The translations under genes and the position numbers were made by a program. This document shows, piece by piece, positions 12,401-53,744 of a DNA stretch of 64,000 nucleotides (its first letter is position 1; each line of letters begins with the position of its first letter). The DNA comes from a virus (Duplodnaviria; Caudoviricetes). The stretch lies in IMG/VR virus record IMGVR_UViG_3300011008_002721, positions 3,495-67,494 of that record; one strand, 5' to 3'. A model generated the notes under the pieces. That model had not been told where the DNA came from and searched no databases. It saw nothing but the letters and a program-made list of their open reading frames with translations.

Positions 12401-15400
12401 CCACGGAAGTGCCGCAGACTTTGAGGAATTCGACCTTGCAAACATCCTTACCGGGGAAGGTGCTGCCGTCCACGGCTGGGGACACTATGTGTCGCTGAAT
12501 AAGGATGTCGCTCTCTCCTATGCTTGGAATATGGCAGTTGAGAAAGCCGAGAAAGATGGCCTACTCCAGCCGGATGTCATGGAAATTCTGCGCAACGATG
12601 CTCAGGAGGACTACGACGAAGCGGTGGCAAGATACAACAACCTTCTGAAAACCCGCCAAGGCCAGGCGAAAGCCGAACTTGACGAAGCCCGTGCCGATGG
12701 TGATGCCAAACTCGCAGAGAGGCTTGAGAAGGAATATGAGGAACTGATGTCGTTCCGGCCGATGGATGAGGTGCTCAAGGATATGCGCAACCTCTACACC
12801 GTGGATATTCCGGAGAATGACGGCCACAACTACATTGACGAAATGAAGACGCTCCCGAAGGAAGACAGAAGGAGACTTGCAGCCGTCATCCGTGAACTCC
12901 CCGAAGACCGTCTTAACCGCCAGTTCCACGGGCCGAACTGGCTCCCGGGAGGATTCCAGACCCTCGCCAACGTCATTGAGAGGGAGCGTTACGCCGCCCT
13001 TGAAATCCGTGAACGTCTGGTGGATGCTCTCGGAACCGAAAAGGCCGCATCCGAAGTCATGGCAAAGGCGGGATTCGTCGGCATTACCTACGACGGACGT
13101 GTTGACGGTCCTTGCGCAGTCATCTTCGACAACGCCTCCATGCACATACGCGAGCACGAGAAATTCCGCATCCGCGAGGAGGAACCTCCGACCAAGACCG
13201 GAATCGGCTACAAAGTGTTCGTCCTCAAGAACGGCCAACTCTATCCTCCGATGGTCGCCAACCCGGATGGAGCGGCAACGCCCGTGGGTGTCTGGCTGGA
13301 TGCTGATGCAGCACCTATTGTCGGCGCAAGCAAAACTGGAAGGCCGAAAGTCAAGGCTGGCGGCAAGGGTACGCAGGGAGGAAGCGGCACACTCGCATAT
13401 CGTCCCGGCTGGCATCTTGGGACCATCCCCTATGCACTCCAGTTCAACCGTAAGGGGGAATCCGGAGAGCGCGAGCTGTTCCCGGCAGATTTTGTCTGGG
13501 CAGAGGTTGAGTATGCCAATGATGTGGACTATCAGGAGGAGGCCATGTCCTACGGCCACAACGAGGCCGGGAAGTTCCAGCACTCCCTTGCCGGACTACC
13601 GAGGCTCCCTGAGAATGGCTCCTATACCTATCGGACCAACCCTGACCCGAAGACCGACCCCTGGATCATAACCGGTGCAATGAAGGTGAAGCGTCTGCTT
13701 ACTCCTTCGGAGGTTGATGAGATGGTTAAGGCCGCAGGCCGTGAGCCGCAGAAACGGCAGGATGGGGCCGTCACTGACCGTCAGATAGAGAATCTGAATA
13801 AGAAGATTGCTGCCATGGCCAGCACCTCGTCTGATGACATGCGCGGAGCAGTAACCGAACTTGCCGGGGAACTTGGCGAGAAGGTACGCATCGTTGAGGA
13901 CGTGAACGAGTTGAAGCACACCAATCCCAACATACAGAGACGCATGCGCAATGCCCTCGGTTGGTACGAGACCGAGAGCGGGGAAGTCGTTGTAGTGCTT
14001 CCTAACGCCCGTAGCGTTGCGGATGCCCGAGCGACTATCTTCCATGAGACCGTTGCCCACAAGGGCCTGCGTGAACTCGTTGGCAAAGACCGCTTTAATG
14101 ACTTCCTTGAGCGAGTCTATACCGGAGCAACAAAGAAGACCCGCGAGGCTATCAACGCACTTGCAAAGCGGCACGGATGGGACCTTGCAGAAGGGACAGA
14201 GGAGTATATCGCCCGTCTTGCTGAATCCGGCTTTGATGAGCGCGAGAACGCCTCCTTCTGGGAGAATGTCCGCAGATTCTTTGAGGATATGATAAGTGAA
14301 GCGAAACTCCGTCTTGGATTCCGCATCACTGACAACGACCTGCGTTATGCACTCTGGCGCTCTTATCAGATGCGCAGGAGCAGGGGTGCGCTTGGTGTCG
14401 CAGAGGATGTCGATATGCAGCAGCGGCTGGGTGTCGGCAACTTCCGTGACGGATCCAGGAGATTCCGCGACCCGGATGAAGTGCTGCATGACCGCACACT
14501 CGCCCGCGACCACTACGAGAAGGCCGTGTCCTCCGGACTGTATCAGTTCCGCGAGGCCGTGCAGGATTCCATGTTGGGACTTCGCACCCTCATGCAGTCC
14601 ATCTTGCAGGCCGAAGGCAAAGGCAAGGTGAACATCGAAGATGTGGATGCTTTTGAAAATGCCTACCTCGCAGAGAACGCCATGTCTTCCATGAATAAGG
14701 CCGAACAGGAGGCGTATTACAAACTGGTGATGTCTCCGCTTCTAAAAGCAGTCTCCGACCTCGGTGTGCCTCAGCAGGAAGTGACGGAATACATGATGGC
14801 AAAGCACGGCCTTGAGCGTAACCGCCTCATGGCTGAACGGGCAGCTACGGCAGCGGAGCAGGCCGATGAAGAGCACCGAAGGACCCACGATGAATGGCTT
14901 GAGCACTTCCGCAAGAATGACTATGCCGGACTGATTGGCTTGACCGGAAAGAAGACCGTTCGTGATGCAGAGCGCGAAGCCCTGCGGATGGTGAACGAGT
15001 TTGAGGCCGACCACAAAACGACCGACCTCTGGGCGAAGACCAATGCCGCGACCAAGGCATCCTTACAGAAACTCTATGAATCTGGTTTGATGACGAAGCA
15101 GGGCTTTGACCATATCTCCGACATGTACGAGTATTACATCCCGCTTCGCGGATGGGATGAGACCACCAGCGATGAGCTGTATGGCTATCTCTCCGAAAGA
15201 AGGGGTGTGCTCAACTCCCCTTTGAAGAAAGCGGAAGGCCGTCGCAGCAAGGCAGATGACCCGCTGGCGTATATTGCAAGCATGGCCGATACTGCCATCA
15301 TGCAGGGTAACCGCAACCGGATGAAGCAACGCTTCCTCAACTTTGTACTGAACCACCCGTCAGACCTTGTAAGCGTGAACGACATCTGGCTTTCCTACGA

Positions 15401-17465: not shown

Positions 17466-17473
17466 TACCTTTG
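17466..17473 (+). promoter_or_regulatory. -7 promoter element upstream of the portal gene
   Basis: Intergenic TACCTTTG 32 nt before ATG 17506; no clear -33 TTTG. Confidence 0.35.
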
Positions 17474-17505
17474 TGCCATTACAGGCATCCATTAACCTTT
17501 TCAAT

Positions 17506-19485
17506 ATGGCCAAAGAAAGAATCAGACCGTTAAGCCGTGTCCATAAGCCCATAGAAATGGACAGTGTTGCCGCCGCGAAGCAGGAACGCGGTGACAGCAG
17601 GGCTTTCGATATTATCTGGGAGGCCATGCAGCATTACACTGCCTCCCAGCGGTTCCGCGATGACCGCCAACGAAACAAGAATTACACCTACGGGAAGCAG
17701 TGGGAGGACGTAATCATTGATGAGAACGGCCAGAAGATGACAGAGGAGGAATATATCAAGTCGCAAGGCAATGTTCCTCTGAAAAACAACCTCATCCGCA
17801 GGCTCGTTCGCAACGTGCTCGGCGTTTACCGTTCGCAGTCGAAGGAGCCTACGTGCTCTGCACGCACCCTTGAGGAAAAGAAACTCGGTGAGACCATGAG
17901 CGTTGTCTTGCAGTGCAACCTGCAGCAGAACAAGGCGGCAGAACTGAATGCCCGCTCAATGGAAGAGTTCCTTATCTCCGGATATGTTCAGTACAAACTG
18001 TGGTACGGATGGAAGAATGACAAACTGGACTGCTGGATTGACCCGGTGCAGGCAAACAATGCCATCATAGACTGCAATATGCGTGATTTCCGTGGTGGTG
18101 ATGAATCCATCATCGGAGAAATTCACGACATCAGTTTCCTAACCCTCTGCCAGCGGTTTGCCAAAACCCCTCAGGACTACTACCGTCTTGCGGAGATATA
18201 CAAACTGGCAAAGGACCACTCTCGCGTAGCGTCGTACTGTCAAGCGTTCGGTTACAACGAGCGGCAGGCCAATTACAGTTTCTTGTTCCCGAACGACCCT
18301 TCAAGATGCCGTGTCATTGAGGTATGGCGCAAGGAAAGCAAGCCCCGTCTCCGTTGTATTGACTACAACAACGGAGAGATATTCAAGTGCGAACTTGAGG
18401 ACCGGAAGGAACTCGTGGATGACGTGAACGCGAAGCGCATCCAGCTCGGTATGCAGCAGGGAATCGCGCCAAATGACATTCCGCTGATCCAGGCGAAGTG
18501 GTTCATGGACGAATACTGGTATTACTACTACCTCTCTCCGTTCGGAGACATTCTCGGTGAAGGTGAAACCCCCTATGAGCACAAGGGCCACCCTTACGTG
18601 TTCAAGGCGTATCCGTTCATCGACGGCGAGATTCATTCCTTTGTTGCGGACGTCATCGACCAGCAACGTTACACCAACCGTCTTATCACGATGTACGACT
18701 GGATTATGCGTGCAAGCGCGAAGGGTGTGCTTCTGTTCCCGGAGGATGCTATTCCGGAGGGATTCGACATCAACGACATTGCAGATGAATGGAGCCGGTT
18801 CAACGGGGTTATCCTTGTGCGTAAGCGCAAAGACAATTCTGTCATGCCGCAGCAGATTGCCAACAATTCTACGAATATCGGCATATCTGAACTGCTCAAC
18901 CTGCAACTCAAGTTCTTTGAGGATATATCCGGTGTCAACGGTGCTTTGCAAGGAAAACCCGGATTCTCCGGAGAGAGCGGGCAGCACGCCCAGCAGATGC
19001 AGCAGAATGCAACCACCTCGCTGCTTGACCTGCTTGAAACATTCTCCTCGTTTGTGGTGGATGTGGCGTACAAGAGCGTCAAGAACATCCAGCAGTACTA
19101 CGATACCAAGCGCGTGTTCAATATCGCCGGCAAGGCCGCAGGATACATCGTTTACGAGCCTAACAAGATTCGTGACGTTGAGTTTGACCTTTCCATTGTC
19201 GAGAGCACGCAGACCCCGGTCTATCGTCAGATGGCGAACGAGTTCCTTATGCAGATATGGAATGCCGGACAGATTTCCCTCCAGCAGCTCCTTCAGCACG
19301 GAGACTTCCCGTTCTCGGATGAACTTCTCCAGAGCATTCAGAGCCAGCAGGAGCAGCTTGAAAAAGGCGAAATGCCGCAGGGCCTTTCCCCTCAACTTCT
19401 CAATCAGGTGCAGCAGGGAGCCGACATGCAGAATGTCAACCGCGCCCATCAGATGCTCACCGGACAATACAAGATGGTTGCATAA
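17506..19485 (+). CDS. Portal protein (P22-like podoviral type)
   Basis: About 659 aa, mostly helical, next to terminase; ATG 17506 preferred over the GTG at 17473. Confidence 0.75.
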   Translation: MAKERIRPLSRVHKPIEMDSVAAAKQERGDSRAFDIIWEAMQHYTASQRFRDDRQRNKNYTYGKQWEDVIIDENGQKMTEEEYIKSQGNVPLKNNLIRRLVRNVLGVYRSQSKEPTCSARTLEEKKLGETMSVVLQCNLQQNKAAELNARSMEEFLISGYVQYKLWYGWKNDKLDCWIDPVQANNAIIDCNMRDFRGGDESIIGEIHDISFLTLCQRFAKTPQDYYRLAEIYKLAKDHSRVASYCQAFGYNERQANYSFLFPNDPSRCRVIEVWRKESKPRLRCIDYNNGEIFKCELEDRKELVDDVNAKRIQLGMQQGIAPNDIPLIQAKWFMDEYWYYYYLSPFGDILGEGETPYEHKGHPYVFKAYPFIDGEIHSFVADVIDQQRYTNRLITMYDWIMRASAKGVLLFPEDAIPEGFDINDIADEWSRFNGVILVRKRKDNSVMPQQIANNSTNIGISELLNLQLKFFEDISGVNGALQGKPGFSGESGQHAQQMQQNATTSLLDLLETFSSFVVDVAYKSVKNIQQYYDTKRVFNIAGKAAGYIVYEPNKIRDVEFDLSIVESTQTPVYRQMANEFLMQIWNAGQISLQQLLQHGDFPFSDELLQSIQSQQEQLEKGEMPQGLSPQLLNQVQQGADMQNVNRAHQMLTGQYKMVA

Positions 19486-25418: not shown

Positions 25419-26063
25419 ATGTTGTACTCGGTCAGTGAACTGAAAGAGGACATCCGAATAGCCCTCGACCAGAACATGACCAGTGAGCAACTGTTTGAGA
25501 CGGGCGACATTGACACGCTTTCCCTTGAGGAAATCATCGAAAGCAAGATTGTCGATGCCGCTCGGCTTGTTGAAGGGACGGCCCCTTCTTATCTCCTCAA
25601 CGGCGGCAAAGCCTTCGGAGACAGTATCAGTTGGGACAGTGCTCACGGTTATGGCAGCGGGAGGATTCTCCTTCCCGATGACTTCCTGCGGCTCGTTTCC
25701 TTCCAGATGAGCGACTGGGATTATCCAGTCACTTTGCCTATCACGGAGGATGACCCTGCCTATGCCATGCAGCGGAGCCGGTATCCAGGCATCAAGGGGA
25801 ATCCCCAGCGCCCGGTTGTGGCAATCACAATGCAGCCAGCCGGACAGGTGCTGGAGTTCTACTCCTGCATGGCCGGAGAATCCGTTTATATCCGTCGCGC
25901 ACAGTACATCCCCATCCGAACCATTGAGGACGGAATGATTGATTTGTGCGAGAAACTGCGCAGGCCCATCGTGTACCGCGCAGCGCAGCTCGTAGCCACG
26001 AGTATAGGAGACACGGAAGCAGCAACCGCTTTGTTGAACATCAGTAATGAGTTAATGAAATGA
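25419..26063 (+). CDS. Probable head-tail adaptor
   Basis: 214 aa, between head genes and the receptor-binding protein; positional. Confidence 0.5.
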   Translation: MLYSVSELKEDIRIALDQNMTSEQLFETGDIDTLSLEEIIESKIVDAARLVEGTAPSYLLNGGKAFGDSISWDSAHGYGSGRILLPDDFLRLVSFQMSDWDYPVTLPITEDDPAYAMQRSRYPGIKGNPQRPVVAITMQPAGQVLEFYSCMAGESVYIRRAQYIPIRTIEDGMIDLCEKLRRPIVYRAAQLVATSIGDTEAATALLNISNELMK

Positions 26064-29000
26064 GTGATTTAAGAAACCTCGGCGTATTTGAATCCGTTGA
26101 CGCTCTCTGGGCAGCACATCCGGAGGGTGGCAAGGAAGGAGATTACGCCTTTATCGGTGCTTCGGAGCAATCCGGAACGAAGTACCGTTGGAACAAATAC
26201 GACCGCATTTGGGAGGATGCAGACAAGGTTACACAAACCACCGGCAAAGAAAACAAGTTCGTTGACGGCGATGCTACCGTAAACGGCAAGTTAAATGTCG
26301 GTGGCAATGCGACCTTTGAAGGCAACCTCAAAGTGAAGGGCACTCTCGATGCGGCTAAAATTAAGCAGCCCAGCGTCGGCCTTTTCTCCACTCTCGCTGC
26401 TCTGCAGGCCGCCTATCCGAATCCGGAGGAGGGTTGGTGGGCCGTCGTGGGGAACAATATCCCTGGCGAAATCTACGACGTTGTGAACGGAGCCTGGCAC
26501 GACACCGGAAACACAGGCGGCGGCGCGGAGATTGACGTGTCTGAACTGCTGGAACCCATTGAGGATGATGTGGTCCAGTTGCAGGAAGATTTGGGTAATG
26601 CGGAAGATGCGATAGATACACTCCAGTCTGACGTGCACGACCTTGAGACGGCCCTTGACGAACTCCTTAACGGAGATGTGACTTCGGCCATTGAATCGTT
26701 CCAGGAAGTTCTGGACTTCCTCTCCGGCATCACCGACGAGCAATCGTTGACCGTCCTCCTGACGGCCATGAAGAACAACATCAAGAAGGGTTACAAGTTC
26801 ATGGGCGTGGCAACACGCAACACGATACCTGCGACTTCTACTGATGATTGTCCTCTGTTCTATCTTGCCATCACCGAAGGGACGTACACGAACTTCTATT
26901 CCGGTATCCTCCGTCCGGCAGAAGACCCTGAAGAAGAACCGGAGAACGTGCCGCTCAGCCTCGAAGAAGGAGAGATTGCACTGTTCATGCCATATACCAT
27001 TGGGAACAGTATCTGGTGGCGCAAGAGCGTTCTCGACATCGCAAAGAAATCCTACGTGGACGCAAAGGTTGAGGAACTGAACGACCGCATGGACAATATC
27101 GGCGAGGAGATTACGCGACTGGACGTGCCTGCCGCCATCTACAACCCGTCCGTTGAGAATCCCATCACCGGAGGCGGCTTCTACACCCTCGTGGACAATG
27201 AGCATCCGTCGCTCTCTGCGGTCCACGTTGCCAAGGCCAACGAAAAAGCAACCAAGGGCCTTGTGATGTCCTTCGCCATTTCCGCTACTGTGTGGAAGAC
27301 CTATCAGTTCGTGGGCCTCACGACCGATGATGTGGACTGGCTCAATCCCGACAACTGGAAGGACTTCGGTTCCCTCGCTGCCGGAAGTGAGAACTACATC
27401 ATCATCGACAACCTCTGCGGTGCTCCGTCCGTGGGTGATTACTACAACCTCGGTTCTGCCGTGGAACGTCTGATTGCCTACCAGCAGTCTTCGGGCGTTA
27501 CCTACGCCAAGCGCGGTCTTATCATCTCCTACCTCGTGGCAGAGAACACGATGGAGACCAAAATGTTCAACGGTGCAGTCTCGGACTTCTCCGAGATTGG
27601 GCTTTGGAAGGACTTCGGCGGTGGCGGCTCTAACGTGGAGACCTCCGACGAACCGGAGGAAGACGGCGAGGATGCCTTCTCCACCGGAGGTGCATACACG
27701 CACTTGCCTGCAACGCTTAACGTGGATACCGAGACAGACGGCGTTGTGAAAATCAAGATGGTCAATGCCGGAGGCGAAGACGTGGGCGATGAGATTCAGT
27801 TCAACGTCGGAACTGGCGGCGGCGGTGGCGGCGGCGGAACCATCGTTTCGATGGCTTTCCAGACCTCCCCTCTGTACGGAAACGCAGGCGGCTCCTTCAT
27901 CCTCCGTGCTGCCATCAAGTCCGTCACCACTGTGGGAAGCGAAGAACAGCTCAACACCATTGCCAACGTGTCCATCTACGACCGCGACACGAATACCCTG
28001 CTGCGGTCCATCAACGTGAATCAGGCATCCAGTGCGGACCTCAATACGTTCGACTTCATCTTTGACATCTCCGAGTACTTCGCCGCAGCAGGTGTGCGCA
28101 GGCTCCGGCTTGTTGCAACCGACGATGCAGGCAACACCGGATCCAGGAATGTAAACGTCACTGCCGTGGATGTCACCATCACCAGCGTGCAGACGCTCCA
28201 GTACACCGCCTCTACGGCCCTTGCCGTCGGAGGAGCAGCCAAGTCCATTCCTCTCTACAAGTTCGCCAACAATGCTTCCGACCGAGGAATCAACGCCATC
28301 ACGGAGATATTCCTTGACGGTGAGTGGCAGGTGCTTGGGCAGGCAGTCATCACCGACACCTACTCGCACGGCATTTCCATCAATCCGAATAACTGTCTGG
28401 GGCAGGTGCTCTCGCACGGAGCCTATCCTATCCGTGTTCACGGCGTGGACGTGGCATCCGGTGTTGTAGGAAACTACCTGTACTCTGGTATCTTTGTAAT
28501 TGACGAGAGCAGCAGCACTCCGCTTGTGGTTGAAAGTTGGATAAGCAAGACGGTGAACCCCGTCGTGAAACTCTACGAGACCATCGTGCTGCAGTATGCG
28601 GTCTATGACCCTTCAAGCAATTCACCAACGGCGCAGGTCTTTCTGGACGGGCAGCAGGTGCAGTCGCACACGGCTTACCGCAGCACGGTTTATACCTTCA
28701 AGCATCAAGTGACGGGCGTTGCATTTGACGGCTCGGTCTCCCAGATTGTGAAGGTTAAGTGCGGAACGTCCTCCGGACCGGACGCATCCTTCCTTGTGTC
28801 CGGCTCCATCATTGATGCTGTGCTGAAGGATGGTGCAATCTACGCCTTCGACTTCTCCAACCGCTCCAACGATGAGGCGGACCATACCATTGAGAGCGGC
28901 GGTTACACCATCGTTCTGAACGGCTCCAATTGGTCCACGACCGGATTCGGGACTTTCAACGGAGAAAAGGCCGTCCGCATCGCGGAGGACGTGACGGCGG

Positions 29001-32000
29001 TCCACAATCACCGTCCGTTTGCCGATGCATCCATTGAGACCAACGGCCTTGGCATCCAGTTCGCCTTTGCGTCCAAAAACCTCACTGACGATGATGCGGT
29101 GCTTATGGAGTGTCGTGACGGCAACAACGGAGCCGGCTTCTACGTGACCGGACGTGCCGTCGGCATTCAGGTGGGCAACACCAAGGAGGAACGTTTCTAC
29201 AAGCAGGGCGAGAAGGTCACTGTGGCTATTGTCGTGGAACCTGCGGCAGAAGGCATGGGCCAGACCCGTCAAGGAACGACATACTACTTCATGAAACTGT
29301 ATCTGAATGGTGAGGAGGTCGCGGCCATCGGCTACACCGCTGGGCAGTCCAACCTTATCCAGAACAGTCCCATCAAGATGTACGGTACGGAGGGTGACTT
29401 CTATCTGTTCTACGACCTTGCGTGGGAGGATTACTTCCTCTTTGACCAGGCATTCCAGAACTATCTGGTGAAACTCACCGATACGTCCGGCATGGCCGAT
29501 GAGTACGATTACGAGAATGTCATGGCATCGCAGGCCGTCACGGAGCTGGGCATCCTCACGACGAAACTCCGTCCGCAAGCTGCGGCTCTCGCAGAGCGCG
29601 GTATGCCGTATATCATCGAGTGCCCCTACAACGGCTCCAACATTGAGGCCCTTGATGAGACCACGAGCACCAAGACGAACAACTACGTCACGCTCTACTA
29701 CATCGACCCCAACCGTCCGTGGACAAACTTCGTTGCCTACGATGTGCGGCGCAGGAACCAGGGAACGACATCGGCAAAGCGTCCGGTGAAGAATCCCCGT
29801 TACTACCTCGCCCAGAAGAACGGCTCCACGTACAACAAGACCACCAAGACCGGAGGCACGCGCATCCAGCTCCTTTACACCCGTGAGCAGATTGTGGCTA
29901 TGGGCTACGACGGCGCACTGTGGGATAAGGCCGCTGCGCTTGCTGCCATCAACAAGGTACAGATTCACGAGAACTCCATCCCCGTGGACATCATCACCGT
30001 GAAGGTGGACTTCTCTGACAGCTCTAACGCCAACGACTGCGGCGTGTGCGACATGATGAACGCCACGTTCCGTGCTCTGGGCGGTCAGTACCTTACGCCA
30101 GCGCAGCGGGCCTATGACGGCACGTGGAAAAAGGGCAGTGTGGAGTTGGAAGGGCTGGTGATGAACCATTCCACGGCCAATTTCCCCATAGCCGTGTTCC
30201 GTTCCAAGAGCGAGGCAGGCTCCGAGCCGTATTTCCATACCAAGGGCAACTGGAAGGAGGATAAGAATGAGCAAACGGCCCTGGGCTTCATCGACACCCC
30301 CGGATACACCAAGGGATGCTTGAACTACGGTGACTTTATCGAGTTCTACGGGCTTGAGAACGAGACCCTTGCTGCAACAAAGGCGCGGTTCCTCTCAACT
30401 TCAGGACTGGACACCGAATCCACCTACATCCTCACCCAGTACTGCGGCCCGTCCTACATCGTGATGGAGCATAACGGCACGCAATGGGTGGAGCAGACTG
30501 GCTCGATGGTCCAGAACGCCAACGGCAAGTGGACCGTTACGGGCAAGGTGCTCAATCCCACCGACGGCTTTGAACTGCTGAACTATCAGGGAATGGACTG
30601 GTTCAAGGGTGTCGCGTCGCTCTCCGACATGATGGCTCCTTCCACTTCCTTCTCGAAATGGGTTCAGACCCTCATTGATGACGGTGACATTTCCATCCAG
30701 ACTGCCCCGGCGTGGACCTACTACTTTGAATCCCTCGTGGATGATGATGACCTTGCCATCGCTTACGCGCTCGGAAAGAAGGTTCCGTATAACCTCTACC
30801 GCTGGATGCTATTCTGCAATTCCTGCGACTACGACCAGTACGGTGCGTCCGCGCTTGCCCTGTGGCGTACCGACCTTTGGAAGTATGCTTCCCCTCATTC
30901 CTGCCTTGCCTACGACGTATTCACGGACTACGCGGCGGCAGTGGACCAGCGGGCGAAGAATATGCAGCCTATGTGGTTCCTTGAGGACGGTTGTAAGATT
31001 GTGAACGGTGTGTTCTACAATGCAGACAACGAGACCTACGAGGAGACCTCCGGAATGCTTCCAATGAGGATGTATCTTAACAAGGTCTATGACTGCGATA
31101 CCTGCAACGGCAAGGATAACGACGGTGGCCAGACCATTGACGCGGAGGTGGACCCGAACAAGATGCCGGACGGAACGTTCGTCAACCCTTATGCCGGGTA
31201 CAATTCCACTCTGTTCCGCAACATCTTCCTCCAGCAGGAGGTGTATGTCGATGCGGCAGGAACGCTGCTCAACCTCCAGACCGTCGCATCGGCCATGCGG
31301 TCCTGCACGGCCACAGTGGACGGCATCACGCTGCATCCTTTCTCGCCGGAAGGAGCGAAGCACTTCTTCATTGACACCCGCATTGCGAAGTGGCAGAAGA
31401 AAGTATCCTCCTACGACGGCGAGCGCAAGTACATCGACTTCACGTCCACCACTGCGGATACCCTCTACTTCTACGCCTTGCAGGGCCTTGGGCTTACATC
31501 CCTTCCGGCCTTCATCGAGCGCAGGTGGAGATACCGCGACGGATTCTACGGCACGGGAGACTTTTTCTCCGGCGTGCTCGCAGGGCGTGTCAATGCTCCG
31601 GCCGGAGCGACCATCCGCATCCGTGCGGCTAAGTCCGGATACTTCGGCATCGGCAACGATTCCTCCGGCTCCCTATCCGAGAAGGTCTATCTGGAAGCAG
31701 GGCAGGAGCACTCCTTTACCGATTTCTCCCGTGAGGAAGGTGCGCTTCTCTACATCTATCAAGCAGACCGTATGAGCATGATTGACCTTTCGCAAATCTC
31801 ACTGTCGGACAATTTCTCCTTCGGTGTGATGACACTTGCCGAGGAAATCATCCTTGGTAACGTGGGAAAGGCCGACCTTTCCATCCTCTCATACAACAAA
31901 CTGACGAACCTGCAACTGGGTGAACTGCCGTTCCTCAAGATACTCAACATCCGTGGGACCATCATCACGAATGTGGGTGCCGAGAACTGCCCCCGTCTGG

Positions 32001-34102
32001 AATCGCTCTATGCTGCCGGCTCCGCACTGACCCGTGCAGATGTTGCAGACGGTGCGAAGATCCAGACGATGGAACTCCCGTCAACGTACAATTACCTCAA
32101 ACTGCGCTATCTCCCGAACATGACGCTTTCCGGGCTGACACTGGCCAATCCTGCGTCCATCCGCACGCTCATCGTGGAGAATAATACAAAGATTGACAGT
32201 GGTACGTTGCTTCGTCAGATTGCGGGCACAACCGGCTCCGCGCTCAAGGTGGTGCGTGCCAATCCGGTGAACATTTCCGGTAATGGTGACGAACTGACAA
32301 CGTGGGAGGGGCTGGGCATGTCCGGTCTGGATGCGAACCTTACGGCGCAGGCAGACCCTGCCATTGTGGGTTCTTACCAACTCTCACGTTATCAAGAGGA
32401 GAGCGTGATTGCCGGATGGCAGGCGGCATTCCCCGAACTGGCGATTGCCAACACGCCTTGCACGGTGATTGAGTTCGACGATTCGGTGCAGGATGAGAAG
32501 AATATCTCAAACCTCGATAACAACACCGGATACAAGTTCGGCATCGCCTATGTTCCCTCCGGGCACGTAAACACCATCCTTGCCAAGCGTCACCGCGTAC
32601 TGGGCAAACTCCAGAACGATGGAGAGATGCTGCTTTGCCAACTTGACGATGAGGATTCCTCCAAGTACGCACTTGACGGCAGCGCGGCCAACCTCAAGGG
32701 AGACCGTGATGAATCCGCAGCGGATGAGGGTGACGTGTTCATGTTTGAGCCGCACTACTGGTACAAGGGTATCAACGACTACCTGAACAATAAGAAGTAC
32801 CAGGCGTACAGCTCCAACGCCACCACCCCGCAGGATGCCGGAAAGGATTCCGTGAAGGTGCCGCTCTCCTCTCTGACCTACTTCGAGGGGCACGGCTTAG
32901 CCGTATCCAATATGTCCGCCGGAGCAACGGTTGAGGACGGCATGGCATCTTATGTCTCATATAACGTCTATAAGATTGACGTGAGCGGAGTGAAGGTCAT
33001 CCGTTTCCCGGCCTGCGTGTCCGGAACCTACGGTGCGGCCTTCGCCAACTCCGCAGGTGAGTGCGTGAGCACGGTCCGTCTTGGCTCCCTCAACGGCTAC
33101 ACCAATGGTGACTATCTCTTTGCGGATGTCCCGTCCTCTGCGAAGTGGCTCTACTTCACCACGGTGCAGGCCCTCGATGCCAACTGTTTCGCCAACTACT
33201 GCGTCAAGGCGTACTCTACGGACATCACTGCCGTGGAGCCGGACTGGGTGGAACACGATGAGTGCGTCTGTGGCGTGTATGAGGCGAACTGCCAGAATGA
33301 CATCATGCGTTCTATCTCCGGAGTGAATTCAACCAACAACATGCAGTGCGGCCAGTACACCGAACTCGCTGCCGCCCGCAAGAGCGGCTCCGGCTTCCAG
33401 TGTGTTGACTACGAGATGTCCAAGGATGTTGCCAATCTGTTCTACGCCAAGTACGGCAGAAGGAATTCCCAGAAGCAGTGCGGCTACGGTACGGGAACGA
33501 CGGCTTCCGTCACCGGACGGACCAACTTCCTTGGTATGCTGGATACCGTCAATCCGAACGGTACAACCACCTACGGCTATTACTACAACTCCGGTGGCAC
33601 GCTTGTGTCTCTTGTAGCAGTCAACGTGATGGGCTACGAGAACTGGCAGGGAGATTCCGGAGAATGGTGCGACACCCGCAGGGTGGGCCTTGCCAACGGC
33701 GCGAGGGTGACTGATTCCCTCGGGACTGCACGGGCCACCAAGACTGGCGTATGGCAAATCAAGATGAACGACGGCACGACCCGCGAGGTCCAGGGCTGCA
33801 CCAACAGTGGTGCTTGGATTTCCAAGGTACATAACGGTCGCTTCATGGATGTGATTGCCACCTATACCAATGCAACGGAGGATACCAACTACTGCGACTG
33901 GGCTAATTATAGCAGCTCCAGCTCCCGTGTGGTGCTCCGGTCGAGCTACAACGCGTACGCGTATGGCGGCGTTGCGTATGCGAATGCAAACTACGATTCG
34001 TCGAGTGCGTACACGGACTATGGTTCCCGTCTTGCCTTCCGCGGCACATTCCGCTGGGCAAGCAGTGTGGCCGAATACAAGGCGGCACCGATGGCGGCGT
34101 AG
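26060..34102 (+). CDS. Large tail / receptor-binding protein, DGR target 1 (2680 aa)
   Basis: Beta-rich modules, CotH-like region ~29600-31500, LRR-like region ~31740-32280, C-terminal CLec/FGE-like domain ending in the VR (SRVVLRS...GSRLAF). Confidence 0.82.
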   Translation: MSDLRNLGVFESVDALWAAHPEGGKEGDYAFIGASEQSGTKYRWNKYDRIWEDADKVTQTTGKENKFVDGDATVNGKLNVGGNATFEGNLKVKGTLDAAKIKQPSVGLFSTLAALQAAYPNPEEGWWAVVGNNIPGEIYDVVNGAWHDTGNTGGGAEIDVSELLEPIEDDVVQLQEDLGNAEDAIDTLQSDVHDLETALDELLNGDVTSAIESFQEVLDFLSGITDEQSLTVLLTAMKNNIKKGYKFMGVATRNTIPATSTDDCPLFYLAITEGTYTNFYSGILRPAEDPEEEPENVPLSLEEGEIALFMPYTIGNSIWWRKSVLDIAKKSYVDAKVEELNDRMDNIGEEITRLDVPAAIYNPSVENPITGGGFYTLVDNEHPSLSAVHVAKANEKATKGLVMSFAISATVWKTYQFVGLTTDDVDWLNPDNWKDFGSLAAGSENYIIIDNLCGAPSVGDYYNLGSAVERLIAYQQSSGVTYAKRGLIISYLVAENTMETKMFNGAVSDFSEIGLWKDFGGGGSNVETSDEPEEDGEDAFSTGGAYTHLPATLNVDTETDGVVKIKMVNAGGEDVGDEIQFNVGTGGGGGGGGTIVSMAFQTSPLYGNAGGSFILRAAIKSVTTVGSEEQLNTIANVSIYDRDTNTLLRSINVNQASSADLNTFDFIFDISEYFAAAGVRRLRLVATDDAGNTGSRNVNVTAVDVTITSVQTLQYTASTALAVGGAAKSIPLYKFANNASDRGINAITEIFLDGEWQVLGQAVITDTYSHGISINPNNCLGQVLSHGAYPIRVHGVDVASGVVGNYLYSGIFVIDESSSTPLVVESWISKTVNPVVKLYETIVLQYAVYDPSSNSPTAQVFLDGQQVQSHTAYRSTVYTFKHQVTGVAFDGSVSQIVKVKCGTSSGPDASFLVSGSIIDAVLKDGAIYAFDFSNRSNDEADHTIESGGYTIVLNGSNWSTTGFGTFNGEKAVRIAEDVTAVHNHRPFADASIETNGLGIQFAFASKNLTDDDAVLMECRDGNNGAGFYVTGRAVGIQVGNTKEERFYKQGEKVTVAIVVEPAAEGMGQTRQGTTYYFMKLYLNGEEVAAIGYTAGQSNLIQNSPIKMYGTEGDFYLFYDLAWEDYFLFDQAFQNYLVKLTDTSGMADEYDYENVMASQAVTELGILTTKLRPQAAALAERGMPYIIECPYNGSNIEALDETTSTKTNNYVTLYYIDPNRPWTNFVAYDVRRRNQGTTSAKRPVKNPRYYLAQKNGSTYNKTTKTGGTRIQLLYTREQIVAMGYDGALWDKAAALAAINKVQIHENSIPVDIITVKVDFSDSSNANDCGVCDMMNATFRALGGQYLTPAQRAYDGTWKKGSVELEGLVMNHSTANFPIAVFRSKSEAGSEPYFHTKGNWKEDKNEQTALGFIDTPGYTKGCLNYGDFIEFYGLENETLAATKARFLSTSGLDTESTYILTQYCGPSYIVMEHNGTQWVEQTGSMVQNANGKWTVTGKVLNPTDGFELLNYQGMDWFKGVASLSDMMAPSTSFSKWVQTLIDDGDISIQTAPAWTYYFESLVDDDDLAIAYALGKKVPYNLYRWMLFCNSCDYDQYGASALALWRTDLWKYASPHSCLAYDVFTDYAAAVDQRAKNMQPMWFLEDGCKIVNGVFYNADNETYEETSGMLPMRMYLNKVYDCDTCNGKDNDGGQTIDAEVDPNKMPDGTFVNPYAGYNSTLFRNIFLQQEVYVDAAGTLLNLQTVASAMRSCTATVDGITLHPFSPEGAKHFFIDTRIAKWQKKVSSYDGERKYIDFTSTTADTLYFYALQGLGLTSLPAFIERRWRYRDGFYGTGDFFSGVLAGRVNAPAGATIRIRAAKSGYFGIGNDSSGSLSEKVYLEAGQEHSFTDFSREEGALLYIYQADRMSMIDLSQISLSDNFSFGVMTLAEEIILGNVGKADLSILSYNKLTNLQLGELPFLKILNIRGTIITNVGAENCPRLESLYAAGSALTRADVADGAKIQTMELPSTYNYLKLRYLPNMTLSGLTLANPASIRTLIVENNTKIDSGTLLRQIAGTTGSALKVVRANPVNISGNGDELTTWEGLGMSGLDANLTAQADPAIVGSYQLSRYQEESVIAGWQAAFPELAIANTPCTVIEFDDSVQDEKNISNLDNNTGYKFGIAYVPSGHVNTILAKRHRVLGKLQNDGEMLLCQLDDEDSSKYALDGSAANLKGDRDESAADEGDVFMFEPHYWYKGINDYLNNKKYQAYSSNATTPQDAGKDSVKVPLSSLTYFEGHGLAVSNMSAGATVEDGMASYVSYNVYKIDVSGVKVIRFPACVSGTYGAAFANSAGECVSTVRLGSLNGYTNGDYLFADVPSSAKWLYFTTVQALDANCFANYCVKAYSTDITAVEPDWVEHDECVCGVYEANCQNDIMRSISGVNSTNNMQCGQYTELAAARKSGSGFQCVDYEMSKDVANLFYAKYGRRNSQKQCGYGTGTTASVTGRTNFLGMLDTVNPNGTTTYGYYYNSGGTLVSLVAVNVMGYENWQGDSGEWCDTRRVGLANGARVTDSLGTARATKTGVWQIKMNDGTTREVQGCTNSGAWISKVHNGRFMDVIATYTNATEDTNYCDWANYSSSSSRVVLRSSYNAYAYGGVAYANANYDSSSAYTDYGSRLAFRGTFRWASSVAEYKAAPMAA
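33920..34039 (+). repeat. DGR variable repeat VR1
   Basis: 120 nt aligned without gaps to TR; 8 substitutions (5 A>T, 3 A>G) plus the terminal GCAAAC>GCCTTC difference, all at TR adenines. Confidence 0.96.
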
Positions 34103-34113
34103 ATTTGTGGGGA

Positions 34114-34149
34114 ATGCGGGACCGGCCGCTCAAAGTGGCCGTCCCGCAT
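34114..34149 (+). other. GC-rich hairpin between VR1 and TR
   Basis: ATGCGGGAC-C-GGCCGCT-CAA-AGTGGCC-GTCCCGCAT; a TAgaTTTG element at 34100-34107 lies just upstream. Confidence 0.7.
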
Positions 34150-34186: not shown

Positions 34187-34306
34187 AGCTCCCGTGTGGT
34201 GCTCCGGTCGAACAACAACGCGAACGCGAATGGCGGCGTTGCGTATGCGAATGCAAACAACGATTCGTCGAATGCGAACACGAACTATGGTTCCCGTCTT
34301 GCAAAC
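34187..34306 (+). repeat. DGR template repeat (TR)
   Basis: AAC/AAT-rich copy of both VRs, upstream of RT, ending GGTTCCCGTCTTGCAAAC (IMH*-like). Confidence 0.96.
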
Positions 34307-34548
34307 ATTGAGTAATAGATAAAAAGTGTTAGACGCTTTCGGGACATATCTTTGTCACAGAAGATTGTCTCTATGTGATGTGCCTACCGAATGGGAGGAC
34401 GTGTCCTCCGGATTGGTGCACAGGGAGATGAGCCACGGCAACAGCGGCATTGGGCCGGAAAGCCGAAACATATACCACGAGGCAGGGTTTAGTAGGGGCC
34501 ACCATGGCCAGCCGAACAAGCTGGGCCTCAAAAAATGAAGGCGTCAAA
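34307..34548 (+). ncRNA. TR-RT spacer, probable structured 3' part of the DGR RNA
   Basis: Probably non-coding; hairpins such as GGAGGA-CGTG-TCCTCC (34394-34409) and GGCCAGC...GCTGGGCC. Confidence 0.5.
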
Positions 34549-35979
34549 TTGAAACGGATAGGTAAGAAAGACAACATCATCGCCGAAATCGTTCAAGAGG
34601 AGCACCTGAACTACGCGATAGACCAGGTGTTGGACACGAAGAAGCGGCGGAATAGCCCGGGAGGGAGGAAGATTCTCCGGAACAGGCAGAAAGTTGTCGA
34701 GCGGCTGAAAAAGGAAATATCCGAAGGCACATTCATGCTGCATGGATACAGTGAGAGAGAAGTAAAGGACGGCCCGAAAATCCGCAAGGTGCAGTGTACC
34801 TGCCTTTATGACCGCATAGGGCTATATGCCATTATGGATGTGGTGGAGCGGCACGTAAAGAAAAAGTACATCACCACAACTGCCGCGAGCATAAAGGGGC
34901 GCGGAATGCACTACCTCTTGAATGCCTTGCGAAAAGACATCCGTGAGGACCCGGAAGGGATGTGGTTCTTTTATAAGAATGACATTAAGAAGTTCTATGA
35001 AAGCACCGACCAAGAAATCATGATGGAGGCTTTGCGGATGATTTTTAAGGACAGAATCCTTCTGACGATGTTGGAACGGTTCGTCCGGATGATGCCGCAA
35101 GGTGTTTCCATCGGCCTGCGCAGTTCGCAGGGGTTCGGAAACATGCTGCTCTCGGTCTTCCTGGATCACAGACTGAAAGACCAGATGGGAGTGAAGCACT
35201 ACTACCGATACTGTGACGATGGGGATTCCCACGCGAAGACTAAGCGTGAATGCTGGAAGATTCGCGACGCACAGCATCAATATGTGGCCGAAGCAAAGTT
35301 GAAGATAAAGGCCAATGAGGCGGTAAGACCTTTATCGGAAGGAGTTGACTTCCTCGGATATGTGATTTATCCGGACCATACGAGGCTGCGGAAACGAAAC
35401 AAGCAGAATGCAGCCCGCAAACTGCACAAGGTCAAGAGCCAGAAGCGTCGCGTTGAGATTGTCGGTTCGCTCTACGGCCAGTGCAAACACGGCGATTGCC
35501 GGAACTTATTCAGAACCTTAACGGGAATGAGTATGGAAGAATATAAAAGACTGAAGGATTACAAACTGAAGCCGCAGTATCCGGACGGAAAGAAGCGCTT
35601 CAACGTCAAGGAAATCAACATGGGGGATTTGCTCCGTGAGGAGTTCCTTGTGGTTGACTTTGAGACGGGCATTGTCACTGCTCCGCAGAAGAAGGATTAC
35701 CAGAAAAAAGTGGATGCGGCCTCCCGTGCCATGCAACGGTACATTGATGACGGTATCTCCATCCCGGCCAACTTCAAGCGCCCGGAGGACATCGAGATGC
35801 CGGAAGGCAAGCACATTGTTCTTATCCAGCGTTCCAACGGGGATTATCGCAAGTTCTACACGGGTGACCGCGAGAACTGGAGCATCCTTGAGCAGATGAG
35901 GAGACTTGGCCTGCCGATGTATTCCAACATCAAGGAAGTCCCGACGAAGTATGGTGTCCGTTATGTCTTCGACTATTAA
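34549..35979 (+). CDS. DGR reverse transcriptase with a C-terminal extension
   Basis: KGRGMH, KNDIKKFYES, SIGLRSSQGFGN and YYRYCDDG motifs; frame open from 34450, TTG 34549 (LKRIG) is the likelier start; about 160 extra aa after the RT domain. Confidence 0.93.
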   Translation: MKRIGKKDNIIAEIVQEEHLNYAIDQVLDTKKRRNSPGGRKILRNRQKVVERLKKEISEGTFMLHGYSEREVKDGPKIRKVQCTCLYDRIGLYAIMDVVERHVKKKYITTTAASIKGRGMHYLLNALRKDIREDPEGMWFFYKNDIKKFYESTDQEIMMEALRMIFKDRILLTMLERFVRMMPQGVSIGLRSSQGFGNMLLSVFLDHRLKDQMGVKHYYRYCDDGDSHAKTKRECWKIRDAQHQYVAEAKLKIKANEAVRPLSEGVDFLGYVIYPDHTRLRKRNKQNAARKLHKVKSQKRRVEIVGSLYGQCKHGDCRNLFRTLTGMSMEEYKRLKDYKLKPQYPDGKKRFNVKEINMGDLLREEFLVVDFETGIVTAPQKKDYQKKVDAASRAMQRYIDDGISIPANFKRPEDIEMPEGKHIVLIQRSNGDYRKFYTGDRENWSILEQMRRLGLPMYSNIKEVPTKYGVRYVFDY

Positions 35980-50289: not shown

Positions 50290-50589
50290 TTATGAATTGA
50301 AAAGTGTTGGCTGGTCGGAGAGCTGCTCATCCACCTTCTTTTCCAGTGCCCGGGACTGGCCAAGGAGGGAAGATGCTTCCTGAGTGTATCCGTGGGCCTT
50401 GCGCTCCGTGAAGTAGGCATTCTGCTTCTCACGCATGGCCTTCACGTCCTTTCGGAACTGGTTATGCTGGACTTCCAGTTTCCCGGCGAACTCCGTGAGG
50501 AGTTGCTCCAGTTCCCCGCAGTCCATCCAACGGAATCCGGCGTGCTGCTCTACGTAGTAGTCAATGAGAGTTTGTGTGCTCTGGTTCAT
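50290..50589 (-). CDS. Hypothetical helical protein
   Basis: 99 aa. Confidence 0.65.
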   Translation of the reverse strand: MNQSTQTLIDYYVEQHAGFRWMDCGELEQLLTEFAGKLEVQHNQFRKDVKAMREKQNAYFTERKAHGYTQEASSLLGQSRALEKKVDEQLSDQPTLFNS

Positions 50590-51308
50590 GGTATGTCAAA
50601 TAATGAGGGTTGTTGGATAATGCGGTCCCCGTAACGCTCTATACCGAGGCATTCTTGCTCAAATCTCGTGTTCTGTGCATCGAAGTACCCTTTGTCTATC
50701 TCGCACCCGTAGAAGTCGAATCCGAGGCCGTAGGCGGCAATTCTGCTGCTTCCGGAGCCAAGGTGCGTGTCCAGTATCTTCCAGCCGGACTTTGCGAATT
50801 TCTGGAGCGTCCAGACGTATAGGGCAACGGGCTTCTGTGTCGGATGGATACGTTTCTCGTTGAGGGCCTTGTTTCCTTGCATGACCCGGCCTTCCGTGAT
50901 TGAACGTCCCTGCAGCATCCCGTTCCACATAAAGGGGAACAGACGGACTGAATCTATGAGGTCGGTCGCTGCTATCTCGCAGTCGGAATAGGTGGAGCCG
51001 GCATTGCATTTGTCCCAGATGATGCGCCCGGGTGCGAAGTGGAAGTTGTAGTAGTTGCAGCCCCACACGATGTAGTGCTTGCTCACGCGCAGCAGCTCCT
51101 TGAAGTATGGCCGCTTCGGCACTTCCCACTTGCATGTCACACGGTAGTCCACCCGGTCAACGCCACTCCGGCTGACGGCTGCGCCATAGTAGCGTCTCCT
51201 CTCAGGACCGCTGAAGTACGGCGGGTCCACCACGGCAAGGTCGAAGAAACCGTCCGGGATGTCCCGCATGTACTTCATGCAGTCCATATTGAAGACTTCG
51301 CTTATCAT
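50586..51308 (-). CDS. DNA amino-methyltransferase (beta class, N6A/N4C)
   Basis: DPPY precedes HPTQKP and LDTHLGSGSS. Confidence 0.9.
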   Translation of the reverse strand: MISEVFNMDCMKYMRDIPDGFFDLAVVDPPYFSGPERRRYYGAAVSRSGVDRVDYRVTCKWEVPKRPYFKELLRVSKHYIVWGCNYYNFHFAPGRIIWDKCNAGSTYSDCEIAATDLIDSVRLFPFMWNGMLQGRSITEGRVMQGNKALNEKRIHPTQKPVALYVWTLQKFAKSGWKILDTHLGSGSSRIAAYGLGFDFYGCEIDKGYFDAQNTRFEQECLGIERYGDRIIQQPSLFDIP

Positions 51309-51904
51309 TTTTCAGCGCCCGCGGATTTTGTGTTTGCGCGGAACACAAAATCCGCCCAGATGTCCGTGAACTGCTTTCCTGCATAAACGGCCAGTTCCTC
51401 CGATTTGAAGGCAAGACGGGAACCACAGTTCGTGTACGCATACGACGAATCGTAGTTCGCATACGCATACGCAACGCCGCCATTCGCGAACGCGTTGCTG
51501 TCCGACCGGAGCACCACACGGGAGCGTTTCTCCAGGGTCATCTTGTCTATCTCCTCCTGCGTATAGAGGTAGAACCAAGGGAACCAGCGCCACTCACCCT
51601 TGACGAACTTCGGGGTCCATCCTTCGTTGAGGACAGTGGCAATCGCCTTGAGCTTGATATAAGCGATTTCGTCCAGCTCAATCTGGAAGCCGTCCCCCTG
51701 TTCTGTATGGTCGAGTAACCGTTCCACCGGGTCATAGCCCAGTTCACGGACCACATCGTCCCATGTCTTTACTCGCTCCATGACGGGGAGGGACTTGTGG
51801 AAGTCCATTTCCGGGAAAAGGTTTACCAGAACGTTTCTTCCTTCGTTACCTGCATTGCGATAGGCATCGAGCAGGCTTTCTTTGTTGACTTTGATTGTCT
51901 CCAT
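51305..51904 (-). CDS. Small early protein carrying a second DGR variable repeat (target 2)
   Basis: 199 aa, no signal peptide or TM segment; C-terminal SRVVLRSDSNAFANGGVAYAYANYDSSYAYTNCGSRLAF. Confidence 0.88.
   Translation of the reverse strand: METIKVNKESLLDAYRNAGNEGRNVLVNLFPEMDFHKSLPVMERVKTWDDVVRELGYDPVERLLDHTEQGDGFQIELDEIAYIKLKAIATVLNEGWTPKFVKGEWRWFPWFYLYTQEEIDKMTLEKRSRVVLRSDSNAFANGGVAYAYANYDSSYAYTNCGSRLAFKSEELAVYAGKQFTDIWADFVFRANTKSAGAEK
51321..51355. repeat. Perfect 14-bp inverted repeat downstream of VR2
   Basis: GCGGATTTTGTGTT-N7-AACACAAAATCCGC. Confidence 0.85.
51407..51525 (-). repeat. DGR variable repeat VR2 (remote)
   Basis: 119 nt ungapped match to TR 34188-34306; 10 substitutions (6 A>T, 4 A>G) plus GCAAAC>GCCTTC, all at TR adenines. 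Confidence 0.94.
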
Positions 51905-52196: not shown

Positions 52197-52453
52197 TTTG
52201 CGGTGCCGGTATATTGAACTTGAACTTCAACGGTATGATGGTACACCCGTACCCGGGTGACAACGAACAGGGCAAAGCCCTCATCGTCATAGCTGGGAGC
52301 ATAGCTCATCTTGACGTGGGCATTCTCATCGCACTGTAAGTCGGCTTCGACTTCCTTCTGGAGATTTCCCATGACGTAGAAGGCATCTACGTCATCGTGG
52401 AATGTGCTCCGGAACTCCCGGTAATTGGTGATAAATACTTTCTTAACTTCCAT
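52193..52453 (-). CDS. Hypothetical protein
   Basis: 86 aa, coupled in the operon. Confidence 0.6.
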   Translation of the reverse strand: MEVKKVFITNYREFRSTFHDDVDAFYVMGNLQKEVEADLQCDENAHVKMSYAPSYDDEGFALFVVTRVRVYHHTVEVQVQYTGTAK

Positions 52454-53744
52454 TTTGGATTGATTCTATTGCTTGAAAGATTCTGAACATAACCTGCGGC
52501 ACGATGGCATTGCCGTAGGCTTTTATGGCTTCGTTTCTCCACTTGTGGAAACCAAGGGGAGTTCCGTCCATAATCTGGGAAAGCCCATCATCTCTTGTGT
52601 GAACAGGGGAGACAGTCGGAAAGTGATTCCACCACGTTCCTTCAGACCAAGCATCGTCGGCAGCGTACTCAACTGGTCGTTGCGCATCATACCATTCTTG
52701 CGAACCATAGCATCCGGATTGTACGGCGGCTGATAGTCTCTCGCAGAAGGCGTTGGAAGCAGGCCCATAGAGGCAAGGTCGGACAGCTCGATTGTGTATC
52801 CTTCCTCCTGCTTCCGGGCTATCCGCTTCCCGTCCGGTGTGCTGGGATTCTTGTAGTCCCGTGCCGTGGGTGTCGGCAGAAGTCCGCTCCCAGCCAAGGC
52901 GGAAAGGCTCTGCCCCATCTGCGAGTTCGGATTGTAGGTGTTTGTCCATTTGTCTCCTTCGCGTGCAGTTGGAGTTGGCAGCAGATCCAGACGAATGAAC
53001 TTCTGCTTCCCTCTTTCGTTGACCTTGAGACCCTGCGTCTCCGGAGTGGGGAGCATCAGTCCCCGTTTCTGTGCGTAGCCGTTGGCTATCTCTTGAGCGA
53101 GCGTCCCGGTGCTGCTGGTCTTGCCTGCCGATGCCGGAAGTGCCGTCTTTCCGTCGAAGGCCGTCGGGGTCTTCAGCATTATAGGCGAGGAAAAACACTC
53201 TGTCTCGTCTATGGGGAGCCCCACAAGCCGCAGCCGGAATAAGAATCGGCTGGACTTCGTATCCGATGGCTTCGAAGTCTTTGCAGATGCGTTCGATGGT
53301 GAAGGACTGTCGCAGTTCGTATCTGTGAAGATTATCTTCCTCTCCGAACAGAGTCGCTTCACATCCCATTTCAGTGAGAATCCCTCCTTCGACCATAGTG
53401 GTGATTCCAGCAACGTTCTCACCAACGACCCAAGTGGGCCGGATTTCTGATACCGCTCGGAACATTTCCGGCCAGAGATAACGTGCATCTTTTTGCCCCC
53501 CCCGTTTTCCAGCATAGGAAAAAGGCTGGCAGGGAAAGCCTCCGGTGAGGACATCGATTTGTCCTCGCCAGCAGCGGAAGTCCGTTTTCGTGATGTCTTC
53601 ATAACTGACAGATTCTGGGAACCAGTATTCAAGCACTCTGCGGCCAAAGGGGTTTATCTCGCAGTGGAAGACATTCTCCCATCCGAGCATGGCAGCGGCC
53701 ACTTCCGGCCCGCCAATCCCGCTAAAAAGGCTTGCGTGTTTCAT
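52443..53744 (-). CDS. C5 cytosine DNA methyltransferase, alpha-type polypeptide
   Basis: SLFSGIGG (I), GGFPCQPFS (IV), ENV (VI), PHRRDRVF (VIII), YGNAIVP (X); no recognisable motif IX, long disordered insert. Confidence 0.9.
   Translation of the reverse strand: MKHASLFSGIGGPEVAAAMLGWENVFHCEINPFGRRVLEYWFPESVSYEDITKTDFRCWRGQIDVLTGGFPCQPFSYAGKRGGQKDARYLWPEMFRAVSEIRPTWVVGENVAGITTMVEGGILTEMGCEATLFGEEDNLHRYELRQSFTIERICKDFEAIGYEVQPILIPAAACGAPHRRDRVFFLAYNAEDPDGLRRKDGTSGIGRQDQQHRDARSRDSQRLRTETGTDAPHSGDAGSQGQRKREAEVHSSGSAANSNCTRRRQMDKHLQSELADGAEPFRLGWERTSADTHGTGLQESQHTGREADSPEAGGRIHNRAVRPCLYGPASNAFCERLSAAVQSGCYGSQEWYDAQRPVEYAADDAWSEGTWWNHFPTVSPVHTRDDGLSQIMDGTPLGFHKWRNEAIKAYGNAIVPQVMFRIFQAIESIQNGS
52523..53647 (-). 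CDS. Nested overlapping ORF, probable beta subunit of the C5 MTase
   Basis: Same strand, shifted frame; five (L/K)PTP-type repeats and a terminal RLSPLFTQEMMGFP motif IX-like segment. Confidence 0.68.
   Translation of the reverse strand: MAAECLNTGSQNLSVMKTSRKRTSAAGEDKSMSSPEAFPASLFPMLENGGGKKMHVISGRKCSERYQKSGPLGSLVRTLLESPLWSKEGFSLKWDVKRLCSERKIIFTDTNCDSPSPSNASAKTSKPSDTKSSRFLFRLRLVGLPIDETECFSSPIMLKTPTAFDGKTALPASAGKTSSTGTLAQEIANGYAQKRGLMLPTPETQGLKVNERGKQKFIRLDLLPTPTAREGDKWTNTYNPNSQMGQSLSALAGSGLLPTPTARDYKNPSTPDGKRIARKQEEGYTIELSDLASMGLLPTPSARDYQPPYNPDAMVRKNGMMRNDQLSTLPTMLGLKERGGITFRLSPLFTQEMMGFPRLWTELPLVSTSGETKP

Follow-up and report, generated by a model that had tools for sequence, protein, structure and literature searches.

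What does a diversity-generating retroelement (DGR) do with a copy of its repeat that lies in a small gene, 17 kb away from its reverse transcriptase (RT) gene and on the opposite strand? The question is raised by a prophage that we analyzed over 64,000 nt (hereafter the window), corresponding to bases 3495–67494 of the 67,494-nt IMG/VR provirus record IMGVR_UViG_3300011008_002721, which is rated complete by CheckV. An earlier note on this DNA had claimed that a single DGR serves two targets in this phage: target gene 1 (26060–34102, plus strand), which encodes a 2,680-aa tail-side protein, and target gene 2 (51305–51904, minus strand), which encodes an acidic, soluble protein of 199 aa.

Three copies of one repeat

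The complete 67.5-kb provirus record contains exactly three copies of the repeat: the template repeat (TR; 34188–34306, plus strand), located past target gene 1 and ahead of the RT gene; a first variable repeat (VR1; 33921–34039, plus strand), which codes for the C-terminus of the giant protein; and a remote variable repeat (VR2; 51407–51525, minus strand), which codes for residues ~127–166 of the 199-aa protein. The reverse complement of 51407–51525 aligns with TR without any gap over 119 nt. We recovered the counts given in the note, namely ten internal differences between VR2 and TR: four A>G (TR positions 34211, 34215, 34255 and 34287) and six A>T (34223, 34224, 34250, 34259, 34271 and 34277). 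The alignment of all three copies also revealed the shared end that had been described: at the 3' terminus, GCAAAC in TR is replaced by GCCTTC in VR2 and VR1 alike, which adds three terminal differences between VR2 and TR. TR adenines underlie all of the VR2 differences (13/13); as TR contains 30 A per 119 nt, the chance of such an outcome is ~(30/119)^13, i.e. roughly 2e-8.

VR1 deviates from TR in the same manner, with 11 differences out of 11 on TR adenines. VR1 and VR2 in turn differ from each other at 12 sites, every one of them at a TR adenine, so that VR2 is not a copy of VR1, nor the reverse. The role of template was assigned to 34188–34306 because an A stands there wherever VR1 or VR2 deviates. 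The single DGR of this prophage genuinely has a second VR at 51407–51525, which it addresses in trans and on the other strand, and the claim of one DGR with two targets holds: both VRs are adenine-specific derivatives of the same TR.

The RT gene (34450–35979, plus strand) encodes a protein that matches phrog_1423 ('Reverse transcriptase', E 3.4e-78), and its translation contains the sequences IGLRSSQ and YCDD; these motifs (the first of the form [LIV]GxxxSQ) mark DGR RTs. The gene consists of one open frame, and its product scores 29.0 bits against the Pfam RVT_1 profile, slightly below the cut-off of 29.6. As for target gene 1, the C-terminal 700 aa of its product match phrog_14959 (E 7e-182) and phrog_5302 ('tail protein').

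Diversification of VR2 and its link with the RT

A collection of 5.8 billion proteins yielded 958 homologues of the 199-aa protein, the 37 closest of which (76–90% identity) were used to calculate column entropies. These 37 proteins share nearly one scaffold, and the VR is different in each. Mean column entropy amounted to 2.06 bits at the VR codons that contain a TR adenine (n=17), compared to 0.01 bits at the VR codons that do not (n=21) and 0.32 bits over the remainder of the protein. The residues found at the variable VR sites (Y, S, N, D, F, H, C, V and G) are those predicted from AAC/AAT mutagenesis. At the nucleotide level, metagenome contigs were scanned with two A-free anchors held fixed and the intervening 78 nt left free, which gave six independent VR2 alleles with diverged flanks. 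When compared with the window TR, 113 of the 119 differences carried by these alleles fall at TR adenines, and the one recurrent non-adenine exception reflects a difference in TR itself, as seen in the TR of a relative. As measured between samples, VR2 is actively diversified in nature: across relatives, the adenine-templated codons vary and the other VR codons do not. The lack of adenine-site variation at VR2, which the note had named as an outcome that would refute its claim, was not observed in this comparison between samples.

Apart from the probable source sample, the runs having words in common with the window are animal gut metagenomes, many of them from sheep or goat, and the samples are probably ruminant gut. 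No nucleotide match to INPHARED phages was obtained with megablast for 20 kb of the window. The 22 runs found were all Logan contigs of DNA, with no RNA run among them; when four of these contig sets were aligned to the window, short extra contigs piled up on the VR (depth 52 versus 11, source sample); since TR, VR1 and VR2 cross-map, these contigs are not assignable to one repeat. Note that in an unrelated sample of sheep gut, a VR1–TR pair was found on a 10.7-kb contig, and its VR1 is identical to the window VR2 (0 differing letters): either the allele is common to the VR1 of one phage and the VR2 of another, or the assembly threaded the wrong repeat.

The 199-aa protein is a full-length member of the phrog_11581 family (residues 1–191, E 5.8e-54), and has no match to a Pfam or NCBIfam family. 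The family is large: an exhaustive HMMER search (E<=1e-3) gave 1,597 clusters at 50% identity, and the matches in cultured or named phages include LoVEphage, BI-TP1, PV4-TP1, BT-TP2 and Versailles. A locus search with the 199-aa protein alone returned 4 loci. The link with the RT was examined in 49 IMG/VR records that hold a family member, 27 of them being at least 90% complete. An RT relative is encoded in 29 of the 49 records, and in 23 of the 27 of high completeness. In each of the 29 RT-encoding records, a match to the 3' region of the family member was found beside the RT (29/29). We called TR the copy for which at least 85% of mismatches fall on its own adenines, and VR1 the mixed copy; on this basis TR and VR1 were both resolved in 25 of the 29 records. 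In these relatives, the TR matches end 3–5 nt short of the VR1 matches, which points to a VR-specific 3' end shared by the VRs. In DGRs of this tail-protein type, the phrog_11581 member routinely serves as a second, remote target.

Could VR2 nevertheless be a relic, i.e. a copy that homed or recombined into place once and is no longer diversified? A single genome cannot separate past from present activity, and contigs are blind to variation within a sample. A relic is highly improbable, however, given that VR2 alleles, varying only at the adenine-templated codons, differ from one to the next of dozens of near-identical scaffolds taken from different samples, that the TR/VR2 pairing is kept across lineages having differing TRs and RTs 27–83% identical to the window RT, and that VR2 has kept both an intact reading frame and an intact VR-specific 3' end.

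Two side observations were made on these records. Many of the related RT matches carry 1–3 in-frame stop codons, which recalls the RT of Quimbyvirus, encoded in three frames. One 81-kb record, IMGVR_UViG_3300045988_093531, contains two VR-like copies that are ~7 kb apart and 75% identical (locus positions 3256–3382 and 10337–10474), which suggests that two small-target paralogues are present in one genome.

Position, scaffold and possible role of the 199-aa protein

As stated in the note, target gene 2 lies on the strand opposite to the RT cassette, 17 kb off. It is part of a module of replication, recombination and DNA-modification genes. Its stop codon overlaps the start of an N6/N4 DNA methyltransferase gene (50586–51308, minus strand; PF01555, phrog_23224), and an RtcB gene is found downstream on the same strand. 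Upstream come two small open reading frames (ORFs), then a C5 cytosine DNA methyltransferase gene (52443–53744, minus strand; PF00145, E 1.7e-39) and the gene of a Lin1244-type replication initiator; a helicase and an exonuclease VIII homologue are encoded farther upstream, on the strand of target gene 2.

We surveyed 113 immediate neighbours of family genes at ~57 loci. The commonest are DnaD-like helicase loaders (12), metallo-beta-lactamase (MBL)-fold hydrolases (9) and crAss001_48-like proteins (6), followed by YqaJ/RecE exonucleases (4), NinB (4) and DNA methylases (3–4); PNK3P, VRR-NUC and a sliding clamp were also found. These neighbours are mostly on the strand of the family gene, and no virion gene was found among the 113. 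The position of the family gene is reliably non-structural, in a replication, recombination and modification module. The note had placed target gene 2 between DNA methyltransferase genes, which is correct for the window and does not extend to the family: with methylases making up just 3–4 of the 113 neighbours, the idea that the gene is always next to methylases was rejected, and the between-methylase position seen in the window and in LoVEphage is not general.

The note was also right that the 199-aa protein has no secretion or membrane signal: its sequence properties (hydrophilic N-terminus, maximum KD19 of 0.8) reveal neither a signal-peptide-like N-terminus nor a transmembrane segment, and its pI is 5.1. 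Two AlphaFold2 (AF2) models were built, with predicted local distance difference test (pLDDT) scores of 63.2 (32 sequences) and 82.8 (103 sequences, predicted template modelling score (pTM) 0.76). In the better model, a helical N-terminal part is predicted with confidence, together with a helix at the C-terminus; pLDDT is ~50 in the VR region. In BFVD, the model matches uncharacterised gut-phage proteins only, some of them from crAss-like viruses, and the matches in the ESM Atlas are unnamed viral clusters. Sequence profiles of the PDB gave insignificant matches only, Pfam profiles gave none, and no function-hinting Pfam domain was found in 10 longer or fused family members. By profile–profile comparison, the family matches the C-terminal domains of the VR1 proteins with a probability of 98%, over the 41-residue VR only, indicating that one cassette is carried by two unrelated scaffolds. 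The family scaffold may be a new, non-lectin frame that presents the DGR variable loop.

Taken together, the two-target account, according to which VR2 is a trans target in a phrog_11581 protein that has its own helical N-domain as scaffold, is very probably correct. Several points weigh against it, or against what may be built on it. No Avd-like accessory gene was found by an NCBIfam search among the ORFs flanking TR and RT, so the machinery may differ from that of Bordetella phage BPP-1; the flanking ORF 35983–36495 matches only a PHROG family that has no assigned function. A recognisable Avd is, for its part, absent from many DGRs, so that its lack is no bar to DGR membership. Among the 27 near-complete family-bearing records, no RT was detectable in 4. 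The comparison between runs is based on Logan contigs only, and contigs drop rare variants, so that variation was read between samples. Since methylase adjacency is not general, the argument for a 'counter-defence island' is weakened. Finally, no solved fold corresponding to the AF2 model was found (no Foldseek match against the PDB at E<=0.001, best VIA-align Z of 4.3), and the C-type lectin (CLec) fold that Benler et al. (2021, Microbiome 9:78, PMC8008677) report for the Quimbyvirus orthologue was not recovered here; as the VR is poorly defined in the model, this speaks neither for nor against their assignment.

What might such a protein do? Gene position is the single line of evidence behind reading it as cytoplasmic, early, non-virion and devoted to anti-defence or host takeover, and we give about even chances to the 199-aa protein being a non-virion, intracellular, diversified binder involved in phage–host conflict. 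In the proposed scheme, the product would be a soluble binder expressed along with the replication and modification genes. More specifically, phrog_11581 might be an antibody-like intracellular binder, whose diversified surface serves, while the phage replicates, to neutralise variable defence proteins of the host or to recognise host factors that are themselves variable; we regard this version as tentative. If it were true, gut phages would use hypermutation for counter-defence in addition to adsorption.

Alternatively, the small protein could be a component of the virion or of the adsorption apparatus (an accessory receptor-binding protein or a tail decoration), both targets then being devoted to host recognition. 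Three observations are in line with this: the 41-residue VR cassette is common to the small protein and the tail-side protein, the Versailles orthologue is annotated as a 'tail protein', and VR1 and VR2 have similar site-specific substitution preferences. Other observations argue against it. The tail-protein homology is confined to the VR, and the label of the Versailles (ON453897.1) homologue, WAK79127.1, very likely stems from VR similarity alone, since its gene (locus positions 5001–5582) lies in a replication context, between NinB and a replisome organiser. With respect to the substitutions, sites mutated in both VR1 and VR2 carry the same base in 57% of cases, compared to ~40% expected. 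A coupling of VR1 and VR2 within a genome was rejected: pairs taken from different genomes having the same TR (same base at 100/185 sites) are as alike as pairs from one genome (40/70), and the excess is observed because the two repeats share preferences at particular sites. Moreover, in ~57 relatives the gene is on the opposite strand in replication and recombination operons devoid of an adjacent virion gene, and in the window, as mentioned above, its end overlaps a methylase gene. A role in adsorption is distinctly unlikely on these grounds.

A second alternative is expression in the lysogen: the protein would then act as a diversified sensor or blocker in superinfection exclusion or immunity, aimed at mobile elements or phages arriving from outside, instead of supporting the lytic growth of the phage itself. 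In favour of this are the proviral nature of the element, the solubility of the protein, with a variable surface that could serve to recognise foreign proteins, and the link between cellular DGRs and defence cited in PMC12629997 and PMC8008677. The gene, however, is located mid-way in a long same-strand replication and recombination operon, away from repressor and integrase, and is not moron-like, which makes this explanation unlikely.

Known systems and homing

The earlier note implied that a remote, intracellular-type target was highly novel; this part of its claims did not stand, as a distal, non-structural, opposite-strand second target close to methylases and a tRNA ligase had already been described, and likewise read in terms of phage–host conflict (PMC8008677, PMC12629997). 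The DGR of Quimbyvirus targets two proteins, and Benler et al. infer, in their abstract as well, a role in phage–host conflict; the distal target ('ORF 80/84') has a CLec domain according to HHpred, and the RT is encoded in three overlapping frames (PMC8008677). In Dahlman et al. (2025, Nature 647:698, PMC12629997), four inducible gut prophage species are reported whose second VR lies far from the RT, close to methyltransferases; the paper gives this arrangement a single sentence and one figure, and analyses neither the family nor its function.

We verified the published arrangement directly in LoVEphage (MW660583), which, like Quimbyvirus, is ~95% identical to the B. dorei prophage CP011531.1. 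In LoVEphage, TR adjoins the RT and a tail collar fibre gene that carries VR1, and the second VR lies ~15 kb away on the other strand, in the gene of QVQ57199.1, with 19–20 adenine differences from TR. This gene is near those of a C5 methylase, Dam (N6 methylase) and RtcB, and its product is 36% identical to the 199-aa protein over 94% of its length (E 9e-24, tblastn). The window thus resembles LoVEphage in having TR and RT next to a tail-side VR1, a remote VR2 on the opposite strand near methylases and RtcB, and adenine-specific variation, and the small targets of Quimbyvirus/LoVEphage and of the window are full-length members of the same family, phrog_11581. By contrast, the phage itself and the TR sequence are different, target 1 has 2,680 aa instead of ~440 aa for the tail collar fibre, and the window RT is encoded in one open frame instead of three overlapping ones. 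The phages BI-TP1, PV4-TP1 and BT-TP2 of Dahlman et al. likewise encode homologues of the 199-aa protein (36–58% identity); unlike the phage studied here, they were cultured from human gut isolates. The window is therefore a further case of a published arrangement, in a different phage lineage and probably from ruminant gut.

Large DGR surveys search near the RT and hence overlook remote targets, as Roux et al. (2021) state (PMC8144416), so that the functional picture of phage DGRs is almost entirely one of tail fibres. In the DGRs described here, a second target outside the structural genes is both stable and widespread. To the published accounts our analysis adds an estimate of family size, an almost constant association with the RT, the resolution of TR and VR1 in most of the RT-encoding relatives, the restriction of the homology with target 1 to the VR, the replication-module context and the absence of VR1–VR2 coupling. 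The central question becomes that of the ligand of a hypervariable soluble protein encoded alongside replication genes, a question that the cultured, inducible relatives (LoVEphage-type BI-TP1 and PV4-TP1) make testable.

Other two-target DGRs of phages are those with tentaclins, in which one DGR also acts on two proteins of different topology; according to the abstract of Baykov et al. (2023, PMC10743442), tentaclins consist of an N-terminal C-type lectin domain followed by immunoglobulin domains, are proposed to be receptor-binding proteins, and are unrelated to phrog_11581. The prototype DGR, that of Bordetella phage BPP-1 (Mtd, Avd, TR, Brt), resembles the present one by its RT, its TR/VR adenine mutagenesis and its tail-side target. 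In both systems, the 3' end of the VR differs from that of TR (initiation of mutagenic homing (IMH) sequence versus IMH*) and a hairpin is found downstream of the VR, its role in homing being presumed here. The two systems differ in that BPP-1 has one adjacent target and requires Avd, whereas there are two targets here, one of them 17 kb off, in a non-structural gene on the other strand.

In the proposed mechanism, the RT would copy the TR RNA with adenine-specific errors, and the resulting cDNA would be substituted for one of the two VRs: the one that encodes the tip of the 2,680-aa protein (VR1) or the one located 17 kb off (VR2). Homing would probably be steered by the GCCTTC 3' end, which is present in both VRs and absent from TR, perhaps with the assistance of a downstream hairpin. 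A candidate for the latter is a 14-bp inverted repeat free of mismatches, with a loop of 7 nt (51321–51355, minus strand), predicted to fold as a hairpin or cruciform and located 51 nt after VR2 in the 3' end of the coding sequence. In close relatives, the outer 10 bp of the stem are kept and the inner stem is changed on both sides (GTGTT/AACAC to CTTC/GAAG). Among 58 relatives that are more distant, only ~10 have a comparable inverted repeat at these codons, and the hairpin is for this reason considered a candidate homing element only.

Two features of the plus-strand region deserve mention. A GC-rich hairpin (34117–34146, plus strand; CGGGAC CGGCCGC ... GCGGCCG GTCCCG type) lies ~83 nt past VR1, just beyond the target gene 1 stop codon; its possible functions are those of a terminator or of a VR1 homing hairpin, and it has no sequence in common with the VR2 hairpin. 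Lastly, the portal gene (17473–19485) is adjoined by a single ORF of 5,670 aa (429–17441, plus strand), which is very large for a 67-kb phage and which the author of the note had labelled a polyvalent protein.

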